From Candidatus Rariloculaceae bacterium (GTDB lineage: Bacteria; Pseudomonadota; Gammaproteobacteria; Steroidobacterales; Rariloculaceae), in the NCBI GenBank assembly GCA_965221035.1, contig OZ244860.1, forward strand, positions 1,184,687-1,248,686: a stretch of 64,000 nt of DNA. Direction: 5' to 3'. The notes under the pieces were generated by a model. That model saw nothing but the letters and a program-made list of their open reading frames with translations, was not told the DNA's origin and did no database searches. Both the position numbers and the translations under genes were made by a program. This document shows, one piece after another, positions 9,498 through 51,131 of this stretch; the first letter of the stretch is position 1, and each line of letters begins with the position of its first letter.

Positions 9498-11957
9498 TCA
9501 GAAGTAGGCCTTCACTCCCGCCCAAACGGTGCGGGGCGCTCCGGGCGCCAGGAAACGTACGTCTTCGCCGATGTCGTCGAGTCCGATGATCTCGTCCGGC
9601 TCTTCGCCGATCAGGCCGAAGTTCTCGTATTCCCGGTCCAGCAGGTTCTCCACCAGCACGAACGCCTCGAATCGCTCCCCGCTGTAGTTTGCGCGAACAT
9701 TCACCGTCGCGTGGCCGTCCAGCTTGTCCAGTTCATTGGATTCGTCGCCGCGCAGGTGGCTGCCGGCGACCGCCAGAAACTCGAGCTCCGCGGACATCCG
9801 GCTCGAGAACGCACGCTCGATGGCGGCCTTGAAGATGTGATCAGGTATTCCCGGCAGGCTGGCGCCGGCACTTACGGGACGGGTGCCGAACGCGCCCCCC
9901 TCATCGTCGTCGTCGCCATTATTGTCCCCGCCGCCCGCACGCGGCTCGTCATCGTCGTCATCATCGCCCCGCAGCAGCGCGTTGGCCGGATGGTTTGGGC
10001 TCAGGACGTCGAAGTCGTCTTCAAACGTCGCACGAATGTACGTGTAGTGGGCATTCCATCGCCATCGCCCGGTTGAGCCAAGGAGCGAAGCCTCGACGCC
10101 CAGCCGCCTGGTCCTGTCGATATTCTTGAACAGTCCGTGCGCCCGGGTCTGCCCGGTCTGCCAGATGATGTCATTCTCATTGAGTGTCCGGAACAGACCC
10201 AGCGACCCGCTCCAGACGTCGGACAGTGCGCCGCGAATGCCGATCTCGAGATTTCTGGCGATGACTTCGTCCAGGGGTGGATCCGCCAGGAAGGCATTCG
10301 GCAAACGGCATTCCTCCACCTCGCCCGTAATTGGGTTGCGGCTCAATTCCTCGCTGCAGGCAAGTTCGATGGGCGTCGGCAGGCGGCTGGATTCATTGTA
10401 GGCTCCATAGAGGTCCAGCTGGTCCGACAAGCGGCGCACGGCACCCACCCCCCAGTTGAAGTTTCCGAAGTCGTGCTCGCCGTTCAGTTGCGGCTGCTCG
10501 CCGGTTCGATCGCGCAACTCGATTCGGCTGCCGTGCCAGAAGCCTGACACGGTGACAGACCAGTCCTCGCCTGGAGAAAAGCGGCTGCCCGCGTAGACGT
10601 AGTTGCGCGCAATTTCGGTGTCGATCTCGGTACGCTCATCGGCGAAACCGCCGCTCACCGAACCTGACGTGGTGGTCGAGCGCGTCGACGGATCGAACAG
10701 GGCGAATTGCACGCTGGAGTCGAAGCCGCTGCTGCCGCGATAGAAGCCCGCACCCACTGTCAGGTCGTGCTCCAGCCCGAACAGCTCCGTCACCGCGTCG
10801 ATCTCCAGGGCGCCTCCCCTGGAATCCTGCTGCCTGCCGCTGATATTGTTGATCGCGCTGCAGCCGCTCTCACCGAAAGCCTCCGTGAATTCGTCCTCGT
10901 CGATACCGCCATCGCTGAGCGACCTGTCCAGTTCGTCCTCCACCGCCTCGCGGCACGCGCCCTGCAACATCCCTGTGAGCCTGTCGATGCCGCCAAAACC
11001 GTCGTCGATGAGCTCTTCCACCTCGTCCTCGTCCAGCCCATCGCCGTTGAATGACCCGGTGTCATTGCTGCGGAAATACAGGTTGGCCGAGAGGTCAATC
11101 CGGTCGGCCAGCGCGTAATCGCCCCTCAGCGCCAGGGTCCGAGTATCGTTGCGGGTTATGTCGGGCGCGGAAAAAATCCGTTCTCGACCCACCGCCAGCA
11201 ATCCGACGGGCGACAGGCCGTTGCCCGTAAGGTCCGACCGGGCTCCGTGGTAGTCGAGGCCCAAGGCACCCCGCTCGCCGCGCCAGTCCACACTGCCGTA
11301 CAGGTTTTCCGTCCAGGACGGAGACATGTCCCGCCATCCGTTCTCCTCGAAGCGTTGCGCGTTGACGTAGTAGGCCCAGTTGCCGTTGTTGCCGCCGCTC
11401 TCGATGTTGGCGATGATCCTGCTGTGGGAACCGCCTTCGACTTCCACCGAATGCCGCGGGTGCGTGAATCCGTTCTTCATCCTCACGACCACCGAGCCGC
11501 CTAGCGTGTTCAGCCCGTACAGGGGGTTCGAACCGCCGAGAAGGCTGAGGCTCGCGATCGCGTTCATGGGCACCAGGTCCCAGTTCACGGCGTCGCCCAG
11601 CGGTTCGTTGAGCCGCACCCCGTTCTGGTAGACCGTCAGCCCGATGGGCAGACCCAGCAGCGGAGATGCGGCGTAACCCCGGAAGTAGAGGTCCGGCTGC
11701 AGAGGATTGCCCTGGGCCGAGTGAACGTGAACGCCGCCGAAGCGCCGGCTGAGGAAGCTGGAAATATCGGCGCTGCCGCTCGCCGCCAACTGTTCCGCAG
11801 TGGCGGACTGGAACGTGCCGGGAAAGTCCCGGACACTCCTTCCCTCGGCGCGCACGGGTGTCGTACCGAACACTGTGACCGTCTCGATATCCTGCGCCGG
11901 CAACGCCGCCGCGACGAGTAGCGACGGGAGCGTTGGCGCCGTTTTGAGCCACCGCAT
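9498..11957 (-). CDS. TonB-dependent outer-membrane receptor
   Basis: Signal peptide (MRWLKTAPTLPSLLVAAALPAQD), plug domain (ETVTVFG...LYFRGY...VYQNGVRLNE) and a C-terminal beta-barrel ending in the aromatic residue (GVKAYF). Start moved to the ATG at 11957. Confidence 0.85.
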   Translation of the reverse strand: MRWLKTAPTLPSLLVAAALPAQDIETVTVFGTTPVRAEGRSVRDFPGTFQSATAEQLAASGSADISSFLSRRFGGVHVHSAQGNPLQPDLYFRGYAASPLLGLPIGLTVYQNGVRLNEPLGDAVNWDLVPMNAIASLSLLGGSNPLYGLNTLGGSVVVRMKNGFTHPRHSVEVEGGSHSRIIANIESGGNNGNWAYYVNAQRFEENGWRDMSPSWTENLYGSVDWRGERGALGLDYHGARSDLTGNGLSPVGLLAVGRERIFSAPDITRNDTRTLALRGDYALADRIDLSANLYFRSNDTGSFNGDGLDEDEVEELIDDGFGGIDRLTGMLQGACREAVEDELDRSLSDGGIDEDEFTEAFGESGCSAINNISGRQQDSRGGALEIDAVTELFGLEHDLTVGAGFYRGSSGFDSSVQFALFDPSTRSTTTSGSVSGGFADERTEIDTEIARNYVYAGSRFSPGEDWSVTVSGFWHGSRIELRDRTGEQPQLNGEHDFGNFNWGVGAVRRLSDQLDLYGAYNESSRLPTPIELACSEELSRNPITGEVEECRLPNAFLADPPLDEVIARNLEIGIRGALSDVWSGSLGLFRTLNENDIIWQTGQTRAHGLFKNIDRTRRLGVEASLLGSTGRWRWNAHYTYIRATFEDDFDVLSPNHPANALLRGDDDDDDEPRAGGGDNNGDDDDEGGAFGTRPVSAGASLPGIPDHIFKAAIERAFSSRMSAELEFLAVAGSHLRGDESNELDKLDGHATVNVRANYSGERFEAFVLVENLLDREYENFGLIGEEPDEIIGLDDIGEDVRFLAPGAPRTVWAGVKAYF

Positions 11958-38645: not shown

Positions 38646-38668
38646 TTGACACTTGAATGGCAAGTGTC
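38646..38668 (+). promoter_or_regulatory. TTGACA box overlapping an 8-bp inverted repeat upstream of the ABC exporter
   Basis: TTGACA at 38646-38651; GACACTTG (38648-38655) and CAAGTGTC (38661-38668) form the inverted repeat. No convincing -10 at 17-nt spacing. Confidence 0.3.
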
Positions 38669-38712
38669 GAGTCTTGCCTGGAACGGCGCGGTACGCCGTG
38701 GAACATCTCTCT

Positions 38713-40557
38713 ATGCTCGGGCATTCCACCAATCCCTCTGACAAGCCTGTTGCGCTACGGAGCTACCTGGGCGTGTTCCGCTACAGCCGGCGCGCGGTGG
38801 CGCTGGTCTGGTCCACGCACAAGGGGCTCACCGTGGCGCTGGCGGTACTGACAGTGACCGCGGGGGTGCTGCCGGCGGGCATCGCCTACGTGGGCAAGCT
38901 GATCGTCGACGCCGTGGTGGCCCAGATCGACGTGGCCCGGCTGGGCGGGGCGGTCGCCTACGGGGAAGTGCTGCGCTGGGTGCTGGTGGAGGGCCTGCTG
39001 GTGGCGTCCATGACCGGCGTGCAACGCGGCATCGGCTTCTCCCAGGCGTTGCTGCGGGTGCTGATCAGCCAGCGGGTCAACGTGCTGATCCTGGAAAAGG
39101 CGCTGACGATGGAGCTGGCGCAATTCGAGGACTCGGAGTTCTACGACAAGCTCAACCGCGCCCGCCAGGAGGCTTCCAGCCGCCCCCTGAGCCTGGTGAA
39201 CCGGACCTTCGGGCTGGCCCAGCACGGCATCTCCCTGGCGAGCTACGGTGGCCTGCTGGTGCAATTCTCGCCCTGGGCCGTGCTCATTCTGCTGGCCGCC
39301 GGGCTGCCCGCCTTCATCGCCGAGGCCAACTTCTCCGGCGAGCAATTCCGGATCTTCCGCTGGCGATCACCCCAGCGGCGCATGCTCATGTACCTGGAAA
39401 TGGTGCTGGCCCGGGAGGACCACGCCAAGGAAGTCAAGCTGTTCGCTCTGGGACGGGAACTGCTGGACCGCTACCGGCGCATCTTCCGCGACCTCTACAA
39501 GGAGGACCGCTCGCTGGCCATCCGCCGCGATGCCTGGGGATTCGGGCTGGGCGTGTTCGGCAACGCGGCATTTTACGGCACCTACGCCTGGATCGTGATC
39601 GCCACCGTCCAGGGCGCCATTTCGCTGGGCGACATGACAATGTACCTGCTGGTCTTCAAGCAGGGACAGGCTTCGGTGAGCTCGATGCTGACGGCGGTCG
39701 GCGGCATGTACGAGGACAACCTGTATCTCTCCAACCTGTACGAGTACCTGGAGCAGGAGTCGACACAGCGGCAGGGCACGGCGGTGGCGGGCCCTGCCCC
39801 CGATGCCGGCCTGGAGCTCACCGACGTCAGCTTCACCTATCCGGGCGCGAAGTTTCCGGCGCTGCGAAATGTAAACCTCAACATCCGCAGCGGTCAGAGC
39901 GTCGCCATCGTGGGCATGAACGGTTCCGGGAAGACGACCCTGATCAAGCTGATGGCGGGGCTGTACCCGCCCGACCGCGGCACGATCCGCTTCCAGGGAA
40001 GGGACCTGGCCGAGTGGGACCCCGCGCGCCTGAGAGCGGCGTTCGGCATCATCTTCCAGGATTTCAACCGCTACCAGCTCAAGGTCGGCGAGAACATCGG
40101 CGCGGGCGATGTCGAGCACCTGTGGGATCAGGGACGCTGGTCCGAGGCGGCTTCCAAGGGCCAGTCGGCCGGCTTCATCGAACGGATGGAGGACGGCTAC
40201 CACACCCAGCTCGGCCGCTGGTTCAACGATGGCCAGGAACTGTCCGGCGGCGAGTGGCAGCGCATCGCGCTGTCGCGGGCATTCATGCGAAGCGGCGCCG
40301 ACGTACTGGTGCTCGACGAGCCCACGGCGGCCATGGACGCCCAATCCGAAGCGGAGATTTTCGACCACTTCCAGTCGATGACCGCCGGCAAGATCGCGGT
40401 GCTGATCTCGCACCGCTTCTCGACCGTGCGCCGGGCGGAACAGATCGTGGTCATGGACGAGGGCAAGGTGGTGGAGACCGGCAGCCACGAGGAGCTGGTT
40501 GTGCGGAACGGCGTGTATGCGCGGCTGTTCGAGTTGCAGGCGCGTGGGTATCGGTAG
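38713..40557 (+). CDS. ABC transporter, fused permease/ATP-binding protein (exporter type)
   Basis: N-terminal six-TM-type domain; C-terminal NBD with Walker A GMNGSGKTT, signature LSGGEWQRIALSRA and Walker B VLVLDEPT. Start at the ATG at 38713. Confidence 0.88.
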   Translation: MLGHSTNPSDKPVALRSYLGVFRYSRRAVALVWSTHKGLTVALAVLTVTAGVLPAGIAYVGKLIVDAVVAQIDVARLGGAVAYGEVLRWVLVEGLLVASMTGVQRGIGFSQALLRVLISQRVNVLILEKALTMELAQFEDSEFYDKLNRARQEASSRPLSLVNRTFGLAQHGISLASYGGLLVQFSPWAVLILLAAGLPAFIAEANFSGEQFRIFRWRSPQRRMLMYLEMVLAREDHAKEVKLFALGRELLDRYRRIFRDLYKEDRSLAIRRDAWGFGLGVFGNAAFYGTYAWIVIATVQGAISLGDMTMYLLVFKQGQASVSSMLTAVGGMYEDNLYLSNLYEYLEQESTQRQGTAVAGPAPDAGLELTDVSFTYPGAKFPALRNVNLNIRSGQSVAIVGMNGSGKTTLIKLMAGLYPPDRGTIRFQGRDLAEWDPARLRAAFGIIFQDFNRYQLKVGENIGAGDVEHLWDQGRWSEAASKGQSAGFIERMEDGYHTQLGRWFNDGQELSGGEWQRIALSRAFMRSGADVLVLDEPTAAMDAQSEAEIFDHFQSMTAGKIAVLISHRFSTVRRAEQIVVMDEGKVVETGSHEELVVRNGVYARLFELQARGYR

Positions 40558-40571
40558 GGGGTTCTGGCACC

Positions 40572-40653
40572 TATTGGAAGTGCCCTATTGGACCCCTATT
40601 GGACCCCTACTTGGACCCCCTATTGGACCCCTATTGGACCCCTATTGGACCCC
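40572..40653. repeat. Seven-unit tandem array with 11-bp period (TATTGGACCCC)
   Basis: Five exact 11-nt units, one 13-nt variant (TACTTGGACCCCC) and one degenerate first unit (TATTGGAAGTGCCC). Lies between the convergent stops of the ABC exporter and the AlbA_2 gene. Confidence 0.9.
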
Positions 40654-40662
40654 ATCAAATCA

Positions 40663-42156
40663 TCAGCCGCCGGACTGAACATCAATCGGTATCCATCGCG
40701 CCGCCAACCCACGTCCTTCAGTCCGAACGAGTTGGCGATCACGAAGATTTGAAAGAGCGCGCTTGACCTGCCGCGGACTGGCCGAGGCACCAAGCGCGGA
40801 TCGAATCTCGCGAAGCGCCATTGGCCCACCCCCACTGACCAGCAGATCGAGCACGGCGTTCTGAACCGCTGACAAGCCGCTGTCGTTAGCATCGTTGACA
40901 GCCGAAAACCGGGAAGGACTTGTCGGTGCGTGACCGCCTTGTGATCCTTGATGGCGGGTGGAGGATACGCGAAGCTGGCTTATCGGCACGCGGAACCTGA
41001 ACCGGACGGTCACGCAGCCACCAGCATCCTCGATCTCCGGTCGCGGCAACCCGGCGCCCAACGCCTCGGATTCCATCTTGAGGGTACCCCGGCCCCATTC
41101 CTCAATGATGCCGCGCAAATAAAACACATGGGCGATTCTCGGGTTCCATGGGCGAGAATCATGCGGTGCGAACAATTGATCCGGAGTCAGCCCGAAATGC
41201 AGGTTTCCGGATGAGCTGATTTCCACCCGGTCGTCATAGACTGCAACTCCGACCGACCCCCCGCCAATTGCGTAGTCGCGGTGACAAAACGCATTCGCCA
41301 ACGCCTCGCGCGTTGCGAGCGGCGGAACCAGCGGTTCATCAATCCGCTCGAGGCGATCCGGTTCGATCCTGCCAGGAATCGGCAGCGTCCCGCGCAGAAA
41401 CCGTTCCGCCGTTCGAAGCAGCGCAAACGCATTTCCGAAGAACTGGCGGTTGTCGACAAACTCCATTCGATCGGTGCCGACAAAGCGGGCCACCCGCAGC
41501 CAGCATTGCGGGAAATCGAATTCAAGGCGCTCCGATTGGCCAAATAGCACGGCGCCCGCCCGCATCAACTGGCCATCACGGATCAACCTGAGACCACGCA
41601 GCAAATCCTCAAGGCTGTTTGTCCCGGGATCGTCCAACCTCCCGCGACGAACCGCTTCCTGAACTGTCCGCCGAATCTCCGCCGCGTCCAGATCCGCGAC
41701 CGACCAGCCTGACACAGGCAGATTCTCCCAACGCTGGTCACCATGAAGCCGCTCGATCAGCAACCGATTGTATTCGTCGACCGGCATCATCGGTGAGGTG
41801 TTACCCACCCGCCGGTAGGCCCTTCCCCGGTATTGGTAAGGTTTTTCGGTACCTTCGTTCACGGCGATGGAGACGATCTCGCGCCGAGAATCGAGCGCGA
41901 CCCGGTTGATCGTTGGCGACGCGGCGGGCTCGATCCGTCGAACTTCGCCCGAAATACGTTCGATCGTACCGTCGCTCACCTCCTGCCCCACCGCCTTGCA
42001 GTCGGGCGTGACCCCGAACAATACCTGCCCGCCACGATGGTTGAGCATGGCGCAGACGGTCTTGGCCGCTTCCACTCTCATGCCGGAGGTTCGCTTGAAT
42101 TCCAGCGTCTCGGATTCACCTTCGGCGACCAGATTGCGGATGTTCTCGATGTTCAT
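40663..42156 (-). CDS. COG2865-type putative DNA-binding protein (AlbA_2/Schlafen-like N-terminus, HATPase_c_4-like core, C-terminal wHTH)
   Basis: 497 aa. N-terminus ESETLEFKRT...AMLNHRGGQVLFGV; central REALANAFCHRDY...GRG; C-terminal wHTH-like LREIRSALGASASPRQVKRALSNLRDRQLV. Its start overlaps the Type ISP stop (ATGA). Confidence 0.75.
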   Translation of the reverse strand: MNIENIRNLVAEGESETLEFKRTSGMRVEAAKTVCAMLNHRGGQVLFGVTPDCKAVGQEVSDGTIERISGEVRRIEPAASPTINRVALDSRREIVSIAVNEGTEKPYQYRGRAYRRVGNTSPMMPVDEYNRLLIERLHGDQRWENLPVSGWSVADLDAAEIRRTVQEAVRRGRLDDPGTNSLEDLLRGLRLIRDGQLMRAGAVLFGQSERLEFDFPQCWLRVARFVGTDRMEFVDNRQFFGNAFALLRTAERFLRGTLPIPGRIEPDRLERIDEPLVPPLATREALANAFCHRDYAIGGGSVGVAVYDDRVEISSSGNLHFGLTPDQLFAPHDSRPWNPRIAHVFYLRGIIEEWGRGTLKMESEALGAGLPRPEIEDAGGCVTVRFRFRVPISQLRVSSTRHQGSQGGHAPTSPSRFSAVNDANDSGLSAVQNAVLDLLVSGGGPMALREIRSALGASASPRQVKRALSNLRDRQLVRTEGRGLAARWIPIDVQSGG

Positions 42157-45100
42157 GAGTTGGTTTCTGGATGGTCCAGCTCAGAATCCTCGAAGGGATT
42201 GGGAAGACCTTTGACGATTTTCACTGTCTCGACACTGACGTGCACGATGCGACGAAACGAAGCGATCAGGTCACGTGGGTTTTCGAACCAGCCGTTCGGA
42301 TCATTGACGATGCCGCTGCGGCTGTCCGTCACGATACGGTAACGATCGATAAACCATTCAATTGGCGTGCGGCCGTTAACACTGTAATCGTGGGCTTCGG
42401 CTGGAATATTCTCAAGCCGGATAAGGTCGTTGATGGCCAGTACGGAACGTTCGCCGTCGACAAAACGCATCTTCTTCTTGCCAATCCTGTAATGCTCGTC
42501 TCGCTGTTCACCGTCGCCGGTGTACGTCACCTGAAGCGGATACTCCGGCCCACTTTCGTACCCGAGATGCAGTGCCGCCAGCTCTTGTCCGGCCGCTGCA
42601 AAAGCGCGGAAGTCCGTTGCGAACGGAATGCGTGGCAATTCCTTGGTGAGGTCGTTGGCAAAGCGCTCGCGATAACCAGGTGCGTGCAGCATGCCGTAGA
42701 CATAGTCGAAGATCGCGTCCCTGGTGATCGCGCGATCCCCGTATCGCACACGGTAGGTCTTGAGAGCCGCTTCAGAGACATTGTCGATGCGCTCCATGCC
42801 GGCGACATCATCGAGCAGATCCCTTTGCCCCCGACGAACATAGCGGTATCGCGGGAAACACTGGCCGTTGAACATCAGTTGGATGTCCGGCATCGTATCG
42901 ACGACAAGCACGGAAAATGGCTTCGTTGAACCGACTCCCGACACACAGATTGCGCGGTTTTCGGCATTGGGCGAGGGGAAAATGCTGTCTTGCTGGTACT
43001 TGTTGTTTACTAAGGTGTAATCGACGTAACAGTGCTGCTTAACGAATGGTCGGTACTGAGTATTCCAGATATTGCCCCGGGAATAGTTGACGCTCCTCCC
43101 TCGCCGAAGGTTGTTCTTGAGTTCCCGGTCCCAACGAACGTGCGAGGAAAACCTGTTTACGGCATCGTCGACTGTTTGCTCGGGATGCTGTTCGCGCACC
43201 GCCAGCGCGCCAAGAAAGTCATCCACCATCCTGCGCGCGTTTTCTGCGCAGTCTTCGCGCGTAAAGTTGTAGATGTAGGCGTCGCGGCTAGTGGCCAATC
43301 CCCTTGAGTACAGCTTGAATATCGTCCCATCGGCGCTCCCCGCCTTTGCCGCCTTGGATCCCAGCGGATAGAACGCCTGGAACGCCTCGTCGCGCTGGCC
43401 GACCCAGTCGTGGTGCCGGTCTGGAGTAATTTCCTCCCAGTCTTCGATGCCTGCGATCGATTGCCACTCGCGCACCTTGGCTAGTTTGTCCTCGCGGGAC
43501 AGATAATCACCGATGTCCCGATACAGAATTCGGCAGCCCTCATGTGCGGCGTCCGGGTTTTTCGCGAGGATCGTGATTGCAACCGGCGCGCGGGAGCCTT
43601 GGTCGAAAACGTTATCGCCTTCCGAACGGCGACGTTCACCCGATGTTCGGGCGTTGCCTCGAAGATTAACGATGTGGACTGAGCTGAATTCTTCCGCCAG
43701 ACAGGCTCGTACACCAGTATCGACGTTGCCGTCGATCCAGGAGCCGTTGGTCACAAGCGCTAGAATGCCACGCTCACCAATCCGGTCCGACGCCCAGCGA
43801 ATGGCCATCTTGTAGGTGTCGTAGAGGCTGTTCTTGAGCGTCGCCTTCGACCGGGTGGCGTACGTCTCGGCAACACGTTGCTCAATCTCAGGATATTTAA
43901 CGTTGGGGTTGCTGTCCGCTGAACTTCTTTGACCCACTGACCACGGCGGATTCCCGACAATCACCTGGATCGGCGTGTTCTGCTGCCTTTCAACCCGCTC
44001 GCTGTTATCCGGTAGCCATTCTTTCGGGAACCCGGCCGTCCTTTCCGTATGCAAGTTGAATGTGTCGGTCAGTACGATGCCCTCGAACGGCTCGTAGCTG
44101 CTATCGGCGCCACGCCGACCATGAAATGCCTCCTCGATATGGATTGCCGCAATGTAGTAGGCCAACAGCACTATCTCGTTGGCGTGCAATTCTCTACGAT
44201 ACTTCCTAACCAAATCTCCATCGGAGATAAGCGCGGACTGGATCAACCGCACGAGAAATATGCCGGTGCCTGTGAACGGATCGAGCACATGCACGCCCGC
44301 GTCGCTGAGGCCACGTCCGAACTCCGACCGCAACGCATAATTGGCACTCGCCAGGACGAAGTCGACGACCTCTACGGGCGTGTAGACGATGCCGAGCCGG
44401 TCCGCCTCCTTCTTGAGCGCCTTGGCGAAGAACTTTTCGTACAATTCCATCAGAACCCGTTGCCGCGCTTGGCTGTTGTCCAAGCCCCGGGCGCGCATCC
44501 GCACACTCTCGTAGAACGACTCAAGATCCTGTGTTTCGCCCTCCAGCCCGAATTCCCCAAAGTCGTTTCGAAGCGCATCCAGCGCCTGAGCAACAGGGTT
44601 GCTGCCAGCGAAGTCGTAGTGCTCGAACAACGCTTCGAAAACGGGCCGGGTAAGGATGTGTTGGGCCATCATTTCGATGGCGTTGTCGGTCGATACCGAG
44701 TCGTTGATGGATATGCGCAATTCCTGATGGAAAGCGTCGAACCACTCGTGCAACGCACCGTTGGCTGGGTTGGCCAGCAGGTTTTCGATGCGGCCCGTAA
44801 CGCGCAGGAAGATATCAGCGACATCCTTCGCCCAAGTCTCCCAGTACTTGCGGTCGCCGCACCTCTCAACGATCTTGGCGTAGATCGCGCCGGGCGGAAG
44901 TTCGAGCGGCGGAAACGGCAGGACGCTGGATATCGTAAGGCCGGATTCCTCGTCGCCGTCCCGCCAAGTGGCGCCGTCACCACTGAAAATAATTCTCTGC
45001 GTTGGCGTCTGATTCAGATCAATCTGGTTGATCTCTGCGTCGAACCGTTCGTCGTGGGAGCGTAGTGCTTGCAGCACGTCCCAGACAGGTGCGAACCGAT

Positions 45101-46946
45101 CATTGTTGTCAAGCGCCAAGACCGGGTCCGTTCCCGCTGGCACGGTCACCGGCAGGATAATGTAACCATACTCCTTGCCCGGCGACTTGCGCATGGCGCG
45201 ACCCACCGCTTGAACGATGTCGACTTGCGAACTGCGCGAATTCATAAACAACACCGCGTCCAGCGCCGGAACATCGATACCTTCCGACAGGCAGCGGGCG
45301 TTTGTGAGGATACGACACAGGCCGGACGAATCGCCCTTCAACCAGTCGATTCGCTTTTTGCGGTCCAGGGCGTGGTGTTGGCCATCGACATGTTGCACTT
45401 CGCAACGTAACGCCCCCGGCCTATCGCTCTCCGGCAGCAGGCCGACGGCATCCTCAACGATGCTGGGCCAGTGCATTTCCAATCGCTTGGAAGACAGGAT
45501 CGTATTCGTGAACGCGATGGCCCGTTTTAGGCGGCGTCCCGAGCCGTGTTCGGGTGCGGTCCCGGATCGCCTAACGGCGTGGCCCTCCGGATCCTGAAGC
45601 GCCTCCCAGCAACCGACGATTTTCGCGCGATCACTAAGGGTGATCTCCTTTCCGTCCCGGGCCAAACCCGACTGCATTGCCTTGTCGACACGATCCTCGG
45701 AGAGCGCGAAAATCACCACCTTGTAATCGGCCAGCAGATCGTTGCCGACTGCCCGCGAGAATGCCAGGCGATGAAACTCGGGGCCATAGATGGCTTTGTC
45801 GTCCATCGAGAACACTTCCACATCGTGACGGGACGCCCTGGACCTGGCAGCCTGCGTATACAGCTTGGGCGTGGCCGTCATGTACAAGCGGCGCTGCGCC
45901 CGAATTCTTTGTCCGTCGTGCACCAGTACGAACGGCGAAGTCTTGTCGCCGGGCCTGTCAATGCCTGTGGTCCGGTGCGCCTCGTCGCAGAGAATGAGGT
46001 CGAAGCCAGGAGCACCATCATTCTGCGCCTCTTCCACTATGCCAAGCGAATGATACGTGCTAAACGCCACTGTCATCGCATCCGAGCGGGCAACGCGAAG
46101 CGCCTTTGAAACGGACACCGAGTCGGTGGTGACGGGGATCTCCAGTTCTTCGATGGGTGCGTCTTCGTCGTTGCGACCAGCTCTCGTGTCGGAGCAGATT
46201 CCGATGTAGGCATGCGGGACTTCGCGCTGCTCCGCCCACTCCCGCATCGATTGCTGCAACAGAGAAATCGACGGAACCAGATAGAGAACACTTCCGCCGA
46301 CGCCCACCATGGACTCGGCGATGCGCAAGGCAGTGAAAGTCTTGCCCGTCCCGCAGGCCATTACAAGCTTGCCTCTATCAGACTCCTCGAACTTGGCCTT
46401 GACGTCTTCGAAAGCCGCCAGCTGGTGGGGCCGCAAGCTGTACGGCTCATGACGCAAAGACAACGCCTCAGGCTCGTTGTGCACGAGATCGGGCCAATCG
46501 ACGGGACGGCTTGCCAGATCGCCGAAACGAAGCACTTGGCACTCCGGTTTCAACCCGGTAATCGTCTTGCGGGCATTCGGACCCCACTCGTCGCCGGTGT
46601 CCACGAACAGGCGCCGGGTGAACGGGTCGCGGGCGGAGGCCGCGATGAAGTTTCGCAGGTGCGACATTTGCAGGCGAGTGCCCGGTTGGTAACACTTGCA
46701 CTGGATCGCGCAGTATCCGCCATCGCTTTCTTCAGCGACGAGATCGATGCCGGTGTCGGTCCCGCTGAATTCGGGTTGGCGCAGCGCCCAGTCGCGCCAC
46801 AGCCAAACCTGCCGGAATCGATCCTGATAGAGGGGGTCCTTCTGCAAATACGCCTTCATCAGGCGTTCGAAGAGGCGACCCTTTTCGACCTCCGTGCTGG
46901 CGATAGACCGGATATGATCCAGAACGGCTTGGAAGCCGTCGCTCAT
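42153..46946 (-). CDS. Type ISP restriction-modification enzyme (Mrr-like nuclease, SF2 helicase-like motor, N6-adenine methyltransferase and target-recognition domain in one chain)
   Basis: 1597 aa. N-terminal PD-(D/E)xK-like GIDLVAE...AIQCKCY; helicase motifs ACGTGKT and LILCDEAHRTTG; methyltransferase motifs VLDPFTGTGIF and VGNPPW; C-terminal YGMLHAPGYRERFANDLTKELPRIPF block typical of Type ISP enzymes. Confidence 0.85.
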   Translation of the reverse strand: MSDGFQAVLDHIRSIASTEVEKGRLFERLMKAYLQKDPLYQDRFRQVWLWRDWALRQPEFSGTDTGIDLVAEESDGGYCAIQCKCYQPGTRLQMSHLRNFIAASARDPFTRRLFVDTGDEWGPNARKTITGLKPECQVLRFGDLASRPVDWPDLVHNEPEALSLRHEPYSLRPHQLAAFEDVKAKFEESDRGKLVMACGTGKTFTALRIAESMVGVGGSVLYLVPSISLLQQSMREWAEQREVPHAYIGICSDTRAGRNDEDAPIEELEIPVTTDSVSVSKALRVARSDAMTVAFSTYHSLGIVEEAQNDGAPGFDLILCDEAHRTTGIDRPGDKTSPFVLVHDGQRIRAQRRLYMTATPKLYTQAARSRASRHDVEVFSMDDKAIYGPEFHRLAFSRAVGNDLLADYKVVIFALSEDRVDKAMQSGLARDGKEITLSDRAKIVGCWEALQDPEGHAVRRSGTAPEHGSGRRLKRAIAFTNTILSSKRLEMHWPSIVEDAVGLLPESDRPGALRCEVQHVDGQHHALDRKKRIDWLKGDSSGLCRILTNARCLSEGIDVPALDAVLFMNSRSSQVDIVQAVGRAMRKSPGKEYGYIILPVTVPAGTDPVLALDNNDRFAPVWDVLQALRSHDERFDAEINQIDLNQTPTQRIIFSGDGATWRDGDEESGLTISSVLPFPPLELPPGAIYAKIVERCGDRKYWETWAKDVADIFLRVTGRIENLLANPANGALHEWFDAFHQELRISINDSVSTDNAIEMMAQHILTRPVFEALFEHYDFAGSNPVAQALDALRNDFGEFGLEGETQDLESFYESVRMRARGLDNSQARQRVLMELYEKFFAKALKKEADRLGIVYTPVEVVDFVLASANYALRSEFGRGLSDAGVHVLDPFTGTGIFLVRLIQSALISDGDLVRKYRRELHANEIVLLAYYIAAIHIEEAFHGRRGADSSYEPFEGIVLTDTFNLHTERTAGFPKEWLPDNSERVERQQNTPIQVIVGNPPWSVGQRSSADSNPNVKYPEIEQRVAETYATRSKATLKNSLYDTYKMAIRWASDRIGERGILALVTNGSWIDGNVDTGVRACLAEEFSSVHIVNLRGNARTSGERRRSEGDNVFDQGSRAPVAITILAKNPDAAHEGCRILYRDIGDYLSREDKLAKVREWQSIAGIEDWEEITPDRHHDWVGQRDEAFQAFYPLGSKAAKAGSADGTIFKLYSRGLATSRDAYIYNFTREDCAENARRMVDDFLGALAVREQHPEQTVDDAVNRFSSHVRWDRELKNNLRRGRSVNYSRGNIWNTQYRPFVKQHCYVDYTLVNNKYQQDSIFPSPNAENRAICVSGVGSTKPFSVLVVDTMPDIQLMFNGQCFPRYRYVRRGQRDLLDDVAGMERIDNVSEAALKTYRVRYGDRAITRDAIFDYVYGMLHAPGYRERFANDLTKELPRIPFATDFRAFAAAGQELAALHLGYESGPEYPLQVTYTGDGEQRDEHYRIGKKKMRFVDGERSVLAINDLIRLENIPAEAHDYSVNGRTPIEWFIDRYRIVTDSRSGIVNDPNGWFENPRDLIASFRRIVHVSVETVKIVKGLPNPFEDSELDHPETNS

Positions 46947-47007
46947 CGTCCCGCGCTTCTCGTTGAAGTCATGCCCAGTTTACCTGTGCGACCGTTTACT
47001 GCCGCTC

Positions 47008-47036
47008 TGCATACAGCACGCTGGCGAGCGTTGCAA
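47008..47036 (-). promoter_or_regulatory. Candidate sigma70 promoter of the Type ISP gene
   Basis: On the - strand: TTGCAA (47031-47036), 17-nt spacer, TATGCA (47008-47013), about 60 nt upstream of the ATG. Confidence 0.35.
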
Positions 47037-47095
47037 CCGACAAGGCCCCGCGCGGGCACGTTCCTGACTCAACGCTTGTCACCGGGCTCGGCGGA

Positions 47096-48241
47096 TTACA
47101 CTGGCGTTATCGGTTCCAGGGTTGAAATCTCCGCAACCGGCAACACAGTAACACTGGCGTCCAGCGAGTAACGCTCCGGCCCCGGATAGACGATCCACAA
47201 GTGCCGCAGCGGCAGGTCGCGCATCACCGCGCGGATGCCTCGCGTCATCCTGGGCGCGTCCTGGTACTTGAATTCCATTCCCCACAAGGTGCCGCGCGCC
47301 TGCCACACGAGGTCGAGTTCCGCGCCGGAATGGGTGCCCCAGAAATGCGGATGATTGATGCCGTGCAGGCGAATGGCCTGTTCAAGTGCGAAGCCTTCCC
47401 AAGAGGCGCCGAGCTTGGGGTGGGATTCCAGTTCGGCGGGCGTTGCGATGGTGTGCAGGGCGTGGAACAGGCCACTGTCCCGGATGTAGAGCTTGGGTGC
47501 CTTCACCAAGCGCTTGCCCACGTTCGCGTGCCACGGAGGAACGAGACGGATCATGAACGTGCCCGTCAAGATCTCCAGATAGCGGCGTATGGTGTGATCC
47601 GACACGCCGAAAGACCGGCTCAGCTCCGAGAAATTCAGCGTCTGGCCGTGGTAGTGGCTGACCATCAGCCAGAACCGTCGTAGCGTTTCGGCGGCGATGG
47701 TGATCCCGAGGCCGGGTATGTCGCGTTCCAGGTGGCTGCGGATGAAGTCTTCCCGCCACAGAAACGAAGCCGTTTCATCCTCGGCAAGGTAGCTTCGCGG
47801 GAACCCGCCCCGCAACCACAGGTTTCGCCAAGCGCCCGCACCTGCCTCGTCCAGCGAAAACGCGCCGAGGTCATGGTAGGCGACTCGACCGGCAAGACTC
47901 TCGGAAACGTCCCTGACCAGATCGGGTGAGGCGCTGCCGAGCAACAGGAAGCGGGTATCGACCTGCCGGTCGGCCAATACGCGGAGCAAGGGAAACAGTT
48001 CGGGCATGCGCTGCACTTCGTCGATGACCACAGTACCCGTCAGGTGTTCCAGGGCGGTTTGCGGTTCCTCCAGTCGGGCAACGCTCCGGGGATCTTCAAG
48101 GTCGAAGTAATGCTCGGCGCCCAGTGAACGGGCCAAGGTGGTCTTGCCGCATTGCCTGGGACCCGCCAATACGGTGATGGGCGCACGGCGGAGGTTGGCC
48201 TTGATGGCCGCAAGCTCGCGGGGACGAGGCAGGTTACTCAT
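47096..48241 (-). CDS. AAA+ ATPase with DUF4143 C-terminal domain (COG1373 type)
   Basis: 381 aa with Walker A GPRQCGKTT and Walker B VVIDEVQ. The C-terminal AELDLV...MEFKY resembles a PD-(D/E)xK-like core. Confidence 0.8.
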   Translation of the reverse strand: MSNLPRPRELAAIKANLRRAPITVLAGPRQCGKTTLARSLGAEHYFDLEDPRSVARLEEPQTALEHLTGTVVIDEVQRMPELFPLLRVLADRQVDTRFLLLGSASPDLVRDVSESLAGRVAYHDLGAFSLDEAGAGAWRNLWLRGGFPRSYLAEDETASFLWREDFIRSHLERDIPGLGITIAAETLRRFWLMVSHYHGQTLNFSELSRSFGVSDHTIRRYLEILTGTFMIRLVPPWHANVGKRLVKAPKLYIRDSGLFHALHTIATPAELESHPKLGASWEGFALEQAIRLHGINHPHFWGTHSGAELDLVWQARGTLWGMEFKYQDAPRMTRGIRAVMRDLPLRHLWIVYPGPERYSLDASVTVLPVAEISTLEPITPV

Positions 48242-48257
48242 TATCTCAACATAGCAC

Positions 48258-48304
48258 GCATAACACGAAAATTCGAAGTTCAGGTACGAATTTTCGTGTT
48301 ATGC
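48258..48304. promoter_or_regulatory. 18-bp perfect inverted repeat immediately upstream of the AAA/DUF4143 gene
   Basis: GCATAACACGAAAATTCG (48258-48275), an 11-nt loop, then CGAATTTTCGTGTTATGC (48287-48304). AT-rich, starting 17 nt from the start codon. Confidence 0.6.
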
Positions 48305-48389
48305 GGCCAAAATCAACGGTGGACTGTTCAACCCACTGATGACACCATGCGGAGCCGGGTCGCCCTCACGAGGCCACGGAGCGATTTTG

Positions 48390-51131
48390 ATGCCCTCCCA
48401 CTCTTCGCCAACCATACGCCGCGCGGACATCGTTTTCCCTGAGAAGGACCAGGCTCTGCGAAATGACGTTCACCGGCTCGGAGAACTGGTGGGCGACGTG
48501 GTCCGGGAACAGGGGGGCGAAGCGCTTTTCGACCTGGTCGAGTCGGCGCGGCGGTCATCCATCGCCCACCGGGAAGGCGATGCCGGGTCGTTGGAGCGAC
48601 TCCAGCGATTGTTGGCGTCCCTGGACCCGGAGACCGCCACCGAATTCATTCGTGCCTATTCCACCTATTTCCAGGTGGTCAACGTGGCCGAAAAGGTCCA
48701 CCGGATCCGTCGGCGCAGGGCCTACCTGAGGGACGCGGCGACTCCCCAGCCGCGCGGATTCGAGGACATCCTTGCGCGGCTCAAGGCCGGCGGAGCGAGC
48801 GCCGACACAATTTTGGAGGCCTTGGCGGGGATGTCGGTGGAACCGGTTTTCGCCGCGCATCCCATGGAAGTGACACGCCGGACGTTGCTGGCCCACCAGC
48901 AAAGCGTTGCCAGGCACCTGATCCGGATGCTCGATCCATACCTCACGCCCCAGGAGGAAAACGCGCTGATGGCCAGCATCCGCATGGATATAACCACCAG
49001 TTGGCAGACCGAGGAACACCCGCGGGAACGCGTGCGCGTGGGTGACGAGGCCGAGCACATCCTGTTCTTCCTGACGGACATCCTGTATCGCATCATCCCG
49101 CCGTTCTACGAGCAGCTGGAGGAAACGGTCAGGGACGCGTTCCCTTCCGTCGCGGAACCCCTGCGCCTGCCCACGGTTGTGAAGTTCGTTTCCTGGGCCG
49201 GGGGAGACATGGACGCCAATCCGAACGTCACCGCCAAGACCATTCGCGAGACGCTCGCGCGGCAAAAGGCCCTGGTGCTGAATCTCTACCACCGGGAGTG
49301 CGGATCGCTGGCAAGGCGCCTCAGCCAGAGCGCGAGCCGGGTCGAGGTCTCCGCAGCGCTGCGGGACCGCAGCGAGTTTTACGTCGGACACTTTCCCCAT
49401 GCGGCCCATGCCATTCCCGCCCGGCACCGGGACATGCCCTACCGGGTCTTTCTGGCCTTGGTGGCGGCCCGGTTGCGCGCCACCCACGAGGAAAGCGCGT
49501 TCCCCTACGAATCCCCGGATGAATTCATCGAAGATATCGACATCGTCGCCGACAGCCTGCGCGACAACAAGGGGGCCAATTCCGGACTGTTCGCGGCCCG
49601 GCGGCTGCGCCGGAGGGTGGATACCTTCGGATTCCATATCGCCACGCTGGATATCCGCCAGAACGCGCTGGCGCACCGGCGCGTCATCCGCGAAGGCCTG
49701 CAGGAACCGGACTGGCTCGACGCTCCCACCGAGGAACGCACGGCGCGACTTCAGGCGGCTCTGGAACGGCGCGAGTCCCCCGTGGGCCGGCTGTCTTCCG
49801 ACGCGCGGCGAACGCTGGCGGTATTCCAGACCATCGCCCACTGCCGCCGAAATTACGGCGACCGCTCCGTGGGACCCTATATCGTCAGCATGGCCCACGG
49901 CGCGGACGACATACTCTCGGTGCTGTTGCTGGCACGCTGGGGAGACCTGGGCACCAAGGGATTGCCTGTGCCGCTGGATGTTGTGCCGCTGTTCGAGACC
50001 GTCGAGGATCTGGAGAGATCTTCGGCCATCCTGAAACGGGTGCTGGAGGATGAGAGCTATCGCCAACACCTGAGCCATCGCGGTTTCCGCCAGATGGTCA
50101 TGGTGGGCTATTCCGACAGCAACAGGGACGGAGGTGTCGCCTCGGCGCGATGGACGTTGCAAAACGCCATGCGCGACCTGGTGGACACCGCCAGGCGCCT
50201 GGGCGTCGAGCTGACACTCTTCCACGGACGCGGCAGCACGCTGACCCGGGGTGGCGGCCGCCTGGACGAAGCGCTGCTGGCAGCTCCCGCGGGCGCCGTC
50301 ACGGGCCGGCTGCGCATCACGGAGCAAGGCGACATGATCAACGCGAAATACGGCCTGCGCGGCATCGCCATGCGCTCGCTGAAACGTAGCGTCGGATCAT
50401 TGCTCTGGGCCACCGCCGGGAACCACCCGCCTGCCAGGTCGGAAGCCCGCTGGCGCACGATCATGGGAGAAATCGCGACGGCCAGCCGGCAGGCCTACAA
50501 GGAAGCGGTGTTCGACCGTGACGAGTTCAACACCTATTTCAGGGCAGCCACTCCGATCGACGTGATCGAAAGGCTGGGCATGGCCTCCCTTCCAGGTGCG
50601 GAGCAAGACGTGAATGGCACCAGCGAACCCCGGGCCAATCCATGGCTTTTTGCCTGGACGCAGAATCGGGCGTTCCTTCCGGGATGGTACGGTCTGGGAA
50701 CGGGACTCGAACAGGCCGCCGGCAAGTACGGTATGGACGAGCTGCGCAGGATGTTCGCGGATCTCAACTTCTTCCGGGTTCTGATCACCGATGCGGAAGT
50801 CGTCATGGGCAAGGCGGACCTGACGGTTTCGGAGCGCTATTCACGGCTCGCCGGCCCATTGCATGAGACGTTCTTTCCCATGGTGCGCGACGAGTTCGAC
50901 CGCTGTGCGGGTCTCGTGATGGAGCTCACCGATCAGGGCGAATTGCTGCAGCGCGCAACGACATTGCGCCGCGCGATACGGCTGCGCAACCCCTACACGG
51001 ATCCCATGAGCCTGTTGCAGGTGGACCTGCTGAAGCGCTGGCGTCGGAGCGGCCGGCGGGACGATGCCGTGCTTCAGCCGCTGGTCGCCAGCATCTACGG
51101 TATCGCCCACGGAATGCAGGCGACCGGTTAA
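48390..51131 (+). CDS. ppc: Phosphoenolpyruvate carboxylase
   Basis: PEPC blocks (VFAAHPMEVTRRT, MVGYSDSNRDGG, FHGRGSTLTRGGG, C-terminal IAHGMQATG). Start at the ATG at 48390. Confidence 0.95.
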   Translation: MPSHSSPTIRRADIVFPEKDQALRNDVHRLGELVGDVVREQGGEALFDLVESARRSSIAHREGDAGSLERLQRLLASLDPETATEFIRAYSTYFQVVNVAEKVHRIRRRRAYLRDAATPQPRGFEDILARLKAGGASADTILEALAGMSVEPVFAAHPMEVTRRTLLAHQQSVARHLIRMLDPYLTPQEENALMASIRMDITTSWQTEEHPRERVRVGDEAEHILFFLTDILYRIIPPFYEQLEETVRDAFPSVAEPLRLPTVVKFVSWAGGDMDANPNVTAKTIRETLARQKALVLNLYHRECGSLARRLSQSASRVEVSAALRDRSEFYVGHFPHAAHAIPARHRDMPYRVFLALVAARLRATHEESAFPYESPDEFIEDIDIVADSLRDNKGANSGLFAARRLRRRVDTFGFHIATLDIRQNALAHRRVIREGLQEPDWLDAPTEERTARLQAALERRESPVGRLSSDARRTLAVFQTIAHCRRNYGDRSVGPYIVSMAHGADDILSVLLLARWGDLGTKGLPVPLDVVPLFETVEDLERSSAILKRVLEDESYRQHLSHRGFRQMVMVGYSDSNRDGGVASARWTLQNAMRDLVDTARRLGVELTLFHGRGSTLTRGGGRLDEALLAAPAGAVTGRLRITEQGDMINAKYGLRGIAMRSLKRSVGSLLWATAGNHPPARSEARWRTIMGEIATASRQAYKEAVFDRDEFNTYFRAATPIDVIERLGMASLPGAEQDVNGTSEPRANPWLFAWTQNRAFLPGWYGLGTGLEQAAGKYGMDELRRMFADLNFFRVLITDAEVVMGKADLTVSERYSRLAGPLHETFFPMVRDEFDRCAGLVMELTDQGELLQRATTLRRAIRLRNPYTDPMSLLQVDLLKRWRRSGRRDDAVLQPLVASIYGIAHGMQATG

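Follow-up and report, generated by a model that had tools for sequence, protein, structure and literature searches.

What kind of locus is formed by the three genes that separate an ABC exporter gene from ppc in the genome of a Candidatus Rariloculaceae bacterium: a plain restriction–modification (R-M) locus, or something more? The genes lie in a 64,000-nucleotide stretch of contig OZ244860.1 (assembly GCA_965221035.1, positions 1,184,687 to 1,248,686), hereafter the window, to which all coordinates given without a locus number refer; loci used for comparison bear the prefix L. Located on the minus strand of a 7.8-kb islet, they encode a COG2865 protein, a Type ISP R-M enzyme and an AAA/DUF4143 ATPase, and all three, first proposed in an earlier reading of the bare letters (the original prediction), were recovered by open reading frame (ORF) and domain calls. 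In itself, the islet is an acquired phage-defence islet of an ordinary kind. Taken as a whole, the reading in which it is a composite of two independent units, one of them a restriction enzyme accompanied by a back-up transfer RNA-cutting nuclease (tRNase), is considered fairly probable. The positions of the features are collected in Table 1.

The window contains a complete Type ISP R-M enzyme. Its Pfam domains follow one another in the order Mrr_cat_2, ResIII, Helicase_C, ISP_coupler, N6_Mtase and Type_ISP_C, and the PADLOC model REase_MTase_IIG matches the protein with 1845 bits. Both LlaBIII and LlaGI match it over the full length, the alignment with LlaBIII running from end to end (1124 bits; residues 5–1583 against 15–1573). 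The catalytic motifs are invariant in 24 homologues; they comprise D68/Q82/K84 of the nuclease, G199–T203 and D321–H324 of the helicase and N999–W1002 (NPPW) of the methylase. As in LlaBIII, a single polypeptide combines an Mrr nuclease, a superfamily 2 (SF2) helicase-like ATPase motor, a coupler, a gamma-class N6-adenine methylase and a C-terminal target recognition domain (TRD). Judging by these motifs, the protein is expected to be an active stand-alone R-M enzyme. It differs from LlaBIII in being chromosomal and in belonging to a 60–81%-identical subfamily of uncultured phyla. Known Type ISP systems are treated as stand-alone, whereas the window enzyme is translationally coupled to a Schlafen-type gene, an arrangement for which no description was found in the searched literature.

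The coupling consists of a four-base overlap, ATGA at 42153–42156, shared between the TGA stop codon of the Type ISP gene and the ATG start codon of the COG2865 gene. Among 80 Type ISP loci, a close orthologue of the COG2865 gene is located immediately downstream in five, and the ATGA overlap is kept in 6/6 pairs: the window, L007 (Rhodothermales), L012 and L014 (Alphaproteobacteria), L041 (Binatia) and L027 (Gammaproteobacteria). These six loci span four phyla. The pairwise identities of the Type ISP and COG2865 proteins correlate (r = 0.82), and the most alike pairs are one alphaproteobacterial and one gammaproteobacterial, which indicates that the pair moves as a unit. More distant COG2865 genes occur near eight further Type ISP genes, mostly downstream and on the same strand. 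Altogether, a COG2865-like gene is found downstream, on the same strand and within 3 kb in 9/13 cases (binomial p = 4e-8, or p = 2e-4 when the orthologues are counted as one event). The linkage is thus more than adjacency, as had been supposed, the overlap being conserved and the pair co-inherited across phyla.

Some features of the same loci speak against a restriction enzyme and a back-up nuclease working together. An orthologous COG2865 partner is absent from 74/80 related Type ISP loci, so the idea that the Type ISP enzyme needs this accessory gene did not hold. On the Type ISP tree the coupled enzymes do not form one clade and are interspersed with uncoupled ones, requiring at least four changes; their scatter implies repeated loss or replacement of the partner. 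The COG2865 orthologue of L027 (L027:9135-10553) aligns in one frame over residues 1–490 and has an in-frame stop near 10103, making this copy either a pseudogene or the product of a sequencing error. Together with the scatter on the tree, this in-frame stop implies that restriction is independent of the COG2865 partner. Type ISP genes were also found on 184 plasmids, with no evident close partner among the matches listed. On plasmids, COG2865 was represented only by distant homologues (no more than 35% identity, 14 plasmids), none of which had an accession in common with Type ISP among the matches listed. The Type ISP and COG2865 genes constitute a mobile, co-inherited two-gene cassette in which the partner is optional.

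The COG2865 protein comprises a Schlafen domain (SLFN_AlbA_2), a GHKL ATPase domain (HATPase_c_4) and a C-terminal winged helix–turn–helix (wHTH) domain. The GHKL domain was recognised as PF13749 with a Pfam E-value of 2.5e-18. In an alignment of 54 homologues, E14-x4-E19-x-K21 and the C35AMLN39 box with the glycines that follow it are at least 90% conserved, as are the GHKL boxes E284/N288, D308-D309, G317 and G355-x-G357; residues E284, N288, D309, G317, G355 and G357 are invariant. The AlphaFold2 (AF2) model has a predicted local distance difference test (pLDDT) score of 91, and shows the wHTH as three helices and a wing at residues 430–490 (pLDDT above 90). According to Foldseek, the model is similar to 3LMM over its full length; the N-terminal domain resembles mammalian SLFN5/11/12/13/14 and the SAMD9 tRNase, the middle part resembles the CA (ATP-binding) domains of histidine kinases and the C-terminal end resembles the wHTH protein 7NE9. 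HTH_24 was detected in the COG2865 paralogue L020. Pfam, NCBIfam and PADLOC searches with the window protein returned Schlafen, GHKL and pAgo-type matches only.

These features can be compared with published Schlafen proteins. A preprint on Schlafen-Argonaute proteins (bioRxiv 10.64898/2026.05.29.728809) describes an E(x)4(D/E)xK nuclease motif and a ‘SAFAN’ box, to which E14-x4-E19-x-K21 and C35AMLN39 correspond; the nuclease motif also corresponds to E15/D20, given as the catalytic residues of RorSlfn5 in PMC13056530. In this literature the architecture is named pSlfn HisKinase-HTH, with a share of 19% of prokaryotic Schlafens, or ‘Schlatpase’-HTH. Other Schlafen architectures are presented there as phage-triggered tRNases and defence effectors (PMC13056530, PMC13462974, bioRxiv 10.64898/2026.05.29.728809). 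For the ATPase/DNA-binding Schlafens, a tight association with R-M, BREX and type I CRISPR systems is described, their activation being unknown (PMC13056530, PMC13462974), and cluster 7 of PMC13462974 is an R-M-associated Schlafen class. Three papers published in 2026 portray prokaryotic Schlafens as tRNase defence effectors with a large R-M-linked class that lacks a known activation mechanism, and no R-M-linked member of the ‘Schlatpase’-HTH class is credited with a defined trigger in them. The window protein shares with that class the AlbA_2 motif and SAFAN-like box, the PF13749 GHKL domain, the C-terminal HTH and a position beside a restriction system; by its nuclease motif, ATPase and HTH it belongs to the Schlafen-GHKL-HTH class. 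It differs in being joined to a Type ISP enzyme, through a conserved ATGA overlap, and in a helically phased array at the 3′ end of its gene, a feature not mentioned in the paper passages searched. The association of R-M systems with Schlafen-ATPase-HTH proteins is known (published in 2026); new detail appears to lie in the Type ISP cassette and in the arrays. By homology, the COG2865 protein may perform metal-dependent tRNA cleavage and act in phage defence.

Type ISP enzymes are related to Type I enzymes but consist of a single chain, and it is in classical Type I operons, beside hsdS/hsdR, that the closest relatives of the COG2865 protein elsewhere (52–58% identity) are embedded. These came from a metagenome scan with the COG2865 alignment, which yielded 80 loci; in none of these 80 does a Type ISP gene stand beside the COG2865 homologue. 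The order in L087 is hsdS, an ATGA overlap, COG2865 and hsdR, while in L088, L097, L098 and L099 hsdS and/or hsdR lie within a few hundred bases of the COG2865 gene. Embedding in a Type I operon was seen in 5/6 of the top COG2865 loci having enough flank. Given the kinship of Type ISP and Type I enzymes, this operon context ties the subfamily to ATP-dependent translocating restriction enzymes. PrrC and RloC are latent tRNA-cutting nucleoside triphosphatases (NTPases), encoded between hsdS and hsdR, that serve as a back-up when restriction fails; the restriction enzyme silences a nuclease of this type until anti-restriction factors of a phage release it. Relatives of the COG2865 gene occupy the same position between hsdS and hsdR as PrrC-EcoprrI/RloC, and the window gene is ATGA-coupled to Type ISP. 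There is no homology between them; a Schlafen domain and a GHKL ATPase are found here, as against an ABC-type NTPase and an anticodon nuclease (ACNase) in PrrC. The COG2865 protein can therefore be likened to PrrC/RloC in position and logic, not by membership. As a separate observation, L098:4639-8392 contains two COG2865-type genes (717 and 465 amino acids, aa) in tandem upstream of hsdR.

The COG2865 gene is followed by an array of 11-bp repeats. Tandem Repeats Finder (TRF) delimited 6.3 copies of the unit CCCTATTGGAC at 40583–40653, with a further, degenerate unit starting at 40572; on the coding strand of the gene, the unit reads GGGGTCCAATA and is repeated six to seven times. The window contains five exact copies of the unit, against 0.5 expected. 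Equivalents are found after the stop codon in other Type ISP cassettes, namely CCTTGGCTTATT × 4 in L007 and ATTCyGGCTn × 5 in L041, with degenerate GGTCCAATGGG-like units in L012, L014 and L027. Type I-linked loci likewise contain GGGGCGAGATA × 4 (L088), CCGCCCTATT × 4 (L089), GTCGAATTCC × 4 (L090), TGGCCAATTC × 4 (L091) and CTGGCTTATT × 13 (L097), and arrays are present in L098, L106, L113 and L116 too; a period of 10–12 bp after the stop codon characterises L007, L041, L087–L091, L097, L106, L113 and L116. Neither the exact unit nor the inverted repeat discussed below was found in 171 loci, except for the same-strain contig L005. The arrays of relatives keep position and period, not sequence, and the genes beyond the array are unrelated between cassettes.

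The frequency of such arrays was counted with TRF (period 9–13 bp, within 100 nt after the stop codon). Homologues with a ‘...GxGRGARW...’ wing have an array in 11/21 cases and other genes of the same loci, used as controls, in 29/1135 (Fisher, 5e-12). With L088 and L114 added to the wing homologues the count is 13/23, against 3/46 for COG2865 homologues with other C-termini (1e-5). A strict autocorrelation measure (82% identity over 28 positions), which is too stringent for short arrays, gave 4/21 against 1/1137. Consequently, the array is a conserved 3′ appendage of the COG2865 subfamily and travels with the gene. The 11-bp array announced in the original prediction is present, and its assignment to the left boundary of the islet had to be abandoned in favour of the COG2865 gene: a role as islet boundary or recombination site was rejected, with equivalents following COG2865 genes in unrelated contexts and no flanking direct repeats. 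Apart from these counts, contigs of two public runs (5171 bp and 142 bp) match 37 nt of the array (40617–40653) with two end differences, implying that similar arrays exist elsewhere in the same samples. Long arrays were also seen after two COG2865 homologues with a different C-terminus, 21 copies of GTGCGGGATA at L101:3280-3490 and 12.6 copies of TCAAGGCCAGAG at L163:956-1150.

The form of the unit varies with the type of wHTH. Proteins with ‘ERxLRxDL...GRGARW’ pair with GGCTTATTCC-type units, and those with ‘RQV(K/R)RAL...(A/T)RW’, Type I-linked L088 included, pair with ...ATAGGGG-type units. The array may be a cognate, iteron-like site of the COG2865 wHTH. Such a site would also suit a protein whose main role is transcriptional control of the restriction system, comparable to a controller (C) protein, in which the wHTH binds the array and thereby sets how strongly the restriction function is expressed, and the Schlafen and ATPase domains are sensory or vestigial. 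The C-terminal wHTH and the unit motif that tracks its type would fit this alternative, as would the Type I operons, in which the array lies between the COG2865 gene and hsdR, upstream of the restriction subunit. Two of these points detract from a back-up tRNase docked on its array: the position upstream of hsdR fits a purely regulatory role too, and the covariation of array and wHTH is seen only at group level, where it is confounded by shared ancestry. The regulator is nevertheless judged unlikely. The nuclease and ATP-binding motifs are at least 90% conserved across the 54 homologues, and related Schlafen proteins are reported as proven tRNases (PMC13056530, PMC13462974). The Type ISP cassettes end with the array, beyond which the genes are unrelated. 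No further copy of its unit was found in the 149-bp spacer presumed to be the Type ISP promoter region, or in the rest of the window. The COG2865 protein also departs from controller proteins, small HTH proteins whose operator lies upstream of their own gene or of the restriction gene, in its size of 497 aa, its two enzymatic domains and the lack of an array unit upstream of the Type ISP gene.

The favoured mechanism, drawn from homology, context and analogy, is that of a back-up tRNase docked on its own array. In the first unit, the Type ISP enzyme, like the studied enzymes of its type, would hemimethylate its own asymmetric site, translocate on unmodified DNA using ATP and cut where two enzymes collide head-on. 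The Schlafen-GHKL-wHTH protein, translationally coupled to it, would be a latent, ATP-switched tRNase forming a second, abortive-infection layer tied to the restriction enzyme, with a function like that of PrrC or RloC in Type I loci. Its wHTH would bind the adjacent 11-bp array as a docking or operator site. The second unit would be the solo AAA_14-HTH-DUF4143 gene, encoding a predicted ATP-dependent PD-(D/E)XK nuclease with its own palindromic operator and promoter, which merely landed beside the first.

A possible precedent for a Type ISP enzyme controlling a tRNase is provided by four Bryobacterales loci (L018, L019, L025 and L031), where the C-terminus of the Type ISP protein is extended by a tail of some 30 aa that resembles the antitoxin VapB (...ALRRSPLVGADIDLTRPREEGRDVIL). 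Behind each tailed enzyme, and coupled to it by an ATGA overlap, stands a VapC-like PIN gene (L018:14693-15270, L019:5254-5831, L025:7444-8021 and L031:14699-15276). The tail was identified through a search of representative proteins and the genomic context of a match. Used as a query, it found 50 small proteins among 1.84 billion representatives, always at the extreme C-terminus, and the gene for one of these (L172) immediately precedes a PIN gene whose identity to the PIN linked to Type ISP is 64%. The tail has no match in PDB, Pfam or NCBIfam. These loci share with VapBC the VapC-like PIN protein and a tail like that on a small antitoxin; they differ in that the DNA-binding part of the antitoxin is replaced by a whole 1600-aa Type ISP enzyme. 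In the Bryobacterales loci, the restriction enzyme appears to stand in the antitoxin's place, an analogy that suggests Type ISP control of a tRNase and counts in favour of the back-up model. The arrangement is not present in the window, and an antitoxin-like tail was found on none of the Schlafen-coupled Type ISP enzymes.

The same loci lend themselves to a different explanation, that the Schlafen gene is an addiction (post-segregational killing) module whose role is to keep the Type ISP cassette stable and not to add an antiviral layer. The slot it occupies holds, in the four Bryobacterales loci, a VapC neutralised by the antitoxin tail on Type ISP, and the cassette does move between phyla. 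Repeated loss of the partner while the Type ISP gene stayed is, however, the opposite of the effect of an addiction module, and the coupled Type ISP enzymes do not have the antitoxin-like tail, which leaves this explanation improbable.

Other occupants were seen in the slot after the Type ISP gene, which is variable. FRG+TPR proteins are encoded there in L009:14736-16181 and L062:14764-17123, and an FRG+TPR protein follows the COG2865 gene in L027 (10722-12320). In L036 (14754-15779), the protein encoded in the slot matches nucleoside deoxyribosyltransferase only weakly in Pfam, below the threshold. Uma2 nuclease genes occur 0.7–1 kb downstream of Type ISP in L018 and L073, the one in L018 (15520-16377) following the coupled PIN gene.

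A wider proposal, put forward tentatively and still rather doubtful, is that R-M-linked Schlafen-GHKL-wHTH proteins carry their own cis-acting DNA element, a helically phased, iteron-like array with a period of 10–12 bp located just behind the gene, which the wHTH would recognise. The array would either keep the ATP-switched tRNase beside the restriction locus as an inactive, DNA-scaffolded oligomer or set the expression of the restriction subunit, with release when restriction fails or when foreign DNA competes; taken with the VapB-tailed enzymes, the slot after translocating restriction enzymes would be a general site for latent tRNases that they control. The 3′ arrays and the antitoxin-tailed Type ISP enzymes suggest two routes of control, docking on DNA and tethering of a toxin to the restriction enzyme. 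The locus represents a minimal form of the R-M-linked Schlafen class, with a single restriction polypeptide, a single Schlafen-ATPase-wHTH protein and a single short array. Since related genomes contain natural variants that lack each of these parts, the question of control is directly testable in a laboratory host, and the cassette could help in such tests of restriction-linked Schlafen proteins.

The third gene is a unit independent of the Type ISP cassette. Its product, a COG1373 protein, has the architecture of the PADLOC candidate family PDC-S01 (E = 4e-78), an AAA_14 P-loop ATPase followed by a DUF4143 PD-(D/E)XK domain; DUF4143 is listed in the PD-(D/E)XK superfamily (PMC3424549). Distant homologues retain Walker A (GPRQCGKTT), Walker B (IDE) and E282/E308/E323-x-K325. 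The protein shares with PDC-S01, a predicted defence family, the hidden Markov model (HMM) match, the Walker A/B motifs and the E...D...ExK residues, and adds to it a conserved promoter-proximal palindrome and a solo, context-independent distribution. More than 120 protein clusters are 79–83% identical to it, in many large genomes and on contigs of many sizes, up to 8 Mb. In five orthologue loci (L167–L171) the gene stands alone among toxin–antitoxin genes or between metabolic genes. The star-like spread of this solo gene, with all relatives at 79–83%, is unusual, and in L171 a second AAA_14/DUF4143 gene lies 3.6 kb downstream on the opposite strand.

The inverted repeat upstream of the DUF4143 gene belongs to this unit. 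Its perfect 19-nt arms (48257–48275 and 48287–48305) enclose an 11-nt loop, and it ends 16 nt before the start of the gene; it is unique in the window, where 0.01 chance matches are expected. A palindrome is located 16–23 nt upstream of the start in 5/5 of the orthologue loci, with the pattern C[A/C][T/C]GAAAwyTCG(AA)..., and its arms change on both sides among the orthologues (CACG/CGTG, CATG/CATG, CCTG/CAGG). The TAnnnT hexamer, TATGTT in the window, is at the same position in the alignment of all five (6 nt before the ATG in the window, 7 nt in the orthologues) and suggests a leaderless or very short-leader mRNA. By its conserved place, the inverted repeat may be a promoter-proximal operator for autoregulation, overlapping the promoter of the gene, which probably serves the internal HTH of the DUF4143 protein itself. 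The original prediction had noted the repeat as an 18-bp structure marking the right boundary; the repeat is there, with slightly longer arms, and its role as islet boundary or recombination site was rejected, for it travels with the DUF4143 gene in unrelated contexts.

Whether all three genes form one tripartite system, in which the DUF4143 ATPase-nuclease cooperates with the Type ISP enzyme and the Schlafen protein, can be judged from the same data. The three genes are on the same strand, with a 149-bp gap and no predicted terminator between DUF4143 and Type ISP, all three are absent from the empty sites described below, and the DUF4143 gene is itself a PADLOC candidate defence gene. Against this, its orthologues stand alone, in unrelated contexts, and each has a conserved palindrome and a promoter to itself. 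No DUF4143 gene adjoins any of the other five Type ISP–Schlafen cassettes, and the content of guanine and cytosine (G+C) of the DUF4143 gene in the window is host-like, unlike that of the cassette. A DUF4143 homologue of any kind occurs within 10 kb in 5/80 Type ISP loci, and the layout of the window occurs in none. A tripartite system is accordingly very improbable, and the AAA/DUF4143 protein did not prove to be the Type ISP partner that had been suggested. The notion of more than a plain R-M locus stands for the conserved coupling to COG2865 and falls for the DUF4143 gene, which is solo elsewhere.

The islet, from 40558 to about 48335, is a horizontally acquired, lineage-specific insertion in the exporter–ppc spacer of an uncultured gammaproteobacterium. 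Contigs encoding homologues of the ppc protein were compared for synteny. In five related genomes (L001, L002, L003, L004 and L006), with ppc proteins 78–86% identical to that of the window and encoded on megabase contigs, the exporter gene is directly beside ppc at a distance of 30–224 bp; the empty site sought at this junction was thus found in all five. In the wider synteny common to them, the trp operon and a gene for a CitMHS transporter lie to one side, and a ybbA-like gene with genes for a GDSL lipase and an AMP-binding enzyme to the other. Beyond the insertion, similarity to the empty sites sets in again near ‘cccactg’ (48333) and ‘ccacggag..ATG’ (48374–48392), which leaves the predicted extent of the islet about right. 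In L005, a contig of another sample with an identical (100%) ppc, the DUF4143 and Type ISP genes adjoin ppc.

Several observations make the case for acquisition less firm. It is by parsimony that the polarity is read as a gain in the window and not as a loss in the five relatives. The dip in G+C is modest, and for the DUF4143 gene it stays inside the host range. An ancestral region deleted in the sampled relatives, with no acquisition at all, would agree with the modest dip and with the lack of an integrase, transposase, tRNA or target-site duplication to mark an insertion. It is nonetheless extremely improbable: the site is empty in all five genomes, over a range of 78–86% ppc identity, and its spacer short, the Type ISP and COG2865 proteins have their nearest relatives in other phyla and the Type ISP tree (the family of loci L007–L086) is incongruent with host phyla. 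As an observation on the junction itself, the spacer, empty elsewhere, is occupied in L001 (9780–9940) by a long palindromic element (about 145 bp), implying that the exporter–ppc spacer accepts insertions and is a recurrent insertion target.

The 60–81% identity of the Type ISP subfamily extends across many (more than ten) phyla, nearly all represented by uncultured metagenome-assembled genomes (MAGs). Its hosts include Poribacteria, Acidobacteriota, Latescibacterota, Rhodothermales, Gemmatimonadota, Nitrospirota, Nitrospinota, Binatia, Verrucomicrobiota, Alphaproteobacteria and Gammaproteobacteria. This spread suggests intense exchange of the subfamily within one habitat, probably marine sponges, and suggests that the host of the islet is a marine sponge symbiont. 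With the DUF4143 gene included, identities of 60–83% across many uncultured phyla point to heavy exchange of defence genes in one habitat.

The composition of the islet is distinct in part. Its G+C content is 59.4%, compared with 64.7% for the whole window; by gene it is 58.4% for Type ISP (z = −3.9), 60.8% for COG2865 (z = −2.6) and 62.7% for DUF4143 (z = −1.6), the reference being 65.7 ± 1.9% over 32 host genes. Earlier doubt about whether the DUF4143 gene belonged to the islet was thus justified. The dip itself is real, although the values of 50–57% counted by hand were too low, 500-bp windows across it giving 54–61%. The reported lack of mobility genes agrees with the searches: the domain search found no integrase or transposase among the neighbouring ORFs, no tRNA gene lies in 30000–60000, no Rfam match in 40000–49000, and no direct repeats flanking the islet were found. 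The islet thus has neither the recombinase nor the tRNA target nor the flanking direct repeats of an integrase- or tRNA-borne island. The public runs found were contig-level runs and one Hi-C run, with no RNA run among them. Two contig-level runs agree with the sequence of the locus, one of them spanning only 45633–50600 at about 3× coverage.

Table 1. Features of the islet and its host flanks in the window
Feature	Position	Strand	Basis or remark
ABC exporter, left host flank	38653..40557	+	domain match; adjoins ppc in relatives too
Inserted islet	40558..48335		left edge directly after the ABC-exporter stop codon; right edge approximate (about 48320–48340)
11-bp tandem array	40572..40653	−	TRF; 6–7 copies, starts about 10 nt after the COG2865 stop
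Schlafen (AlbA_2) + GHKL ATPase + wHTH protein (COG2865, ‘Schlatpase-HTH’), 497 aa	40663..42156	−	Pfam, AF2, Foldseek
Type ISP R-M enzyme, 1597 aa	42153..46946	−	Pfam, PADLOC, LlaBIII alignment
Spacer, DUF4143 stop to Type ISP start	46947..47095	−	149 bp; without a copy of the 11-bp array unit
AAA_14 ATPase + HTH + DUF4143 (PD-(D/E)XK) protein, 381 aa	47096..48241	−	Pfam, PADLOC
TATGTT, −10-like TAnnnT hexamer	48248..48253	−	6 nt before the DUF4143 ATG (7 nt in orthologues)
Inverted repeat	48257..48305	−	perfect 19-nt arms, 11-nt loop
ppc, right host flank	48390..51131	+	913 aa from ATG 48390

Comparison with homologues places the start of ppc at ATG 48390 and not at 48339, giving a protein of the same length as in all relatives. 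A terminator-like hairpin with a T-run is located on the minus strand at 48319–48336, between the DUF4143 palindrome and ppc and approximately at the right edge of the insertion. The ppc promoter of the relatives (TTGCGTTACAAT region) is not kept in the window, and ppc of this strain may be transcribed from a different promoter.

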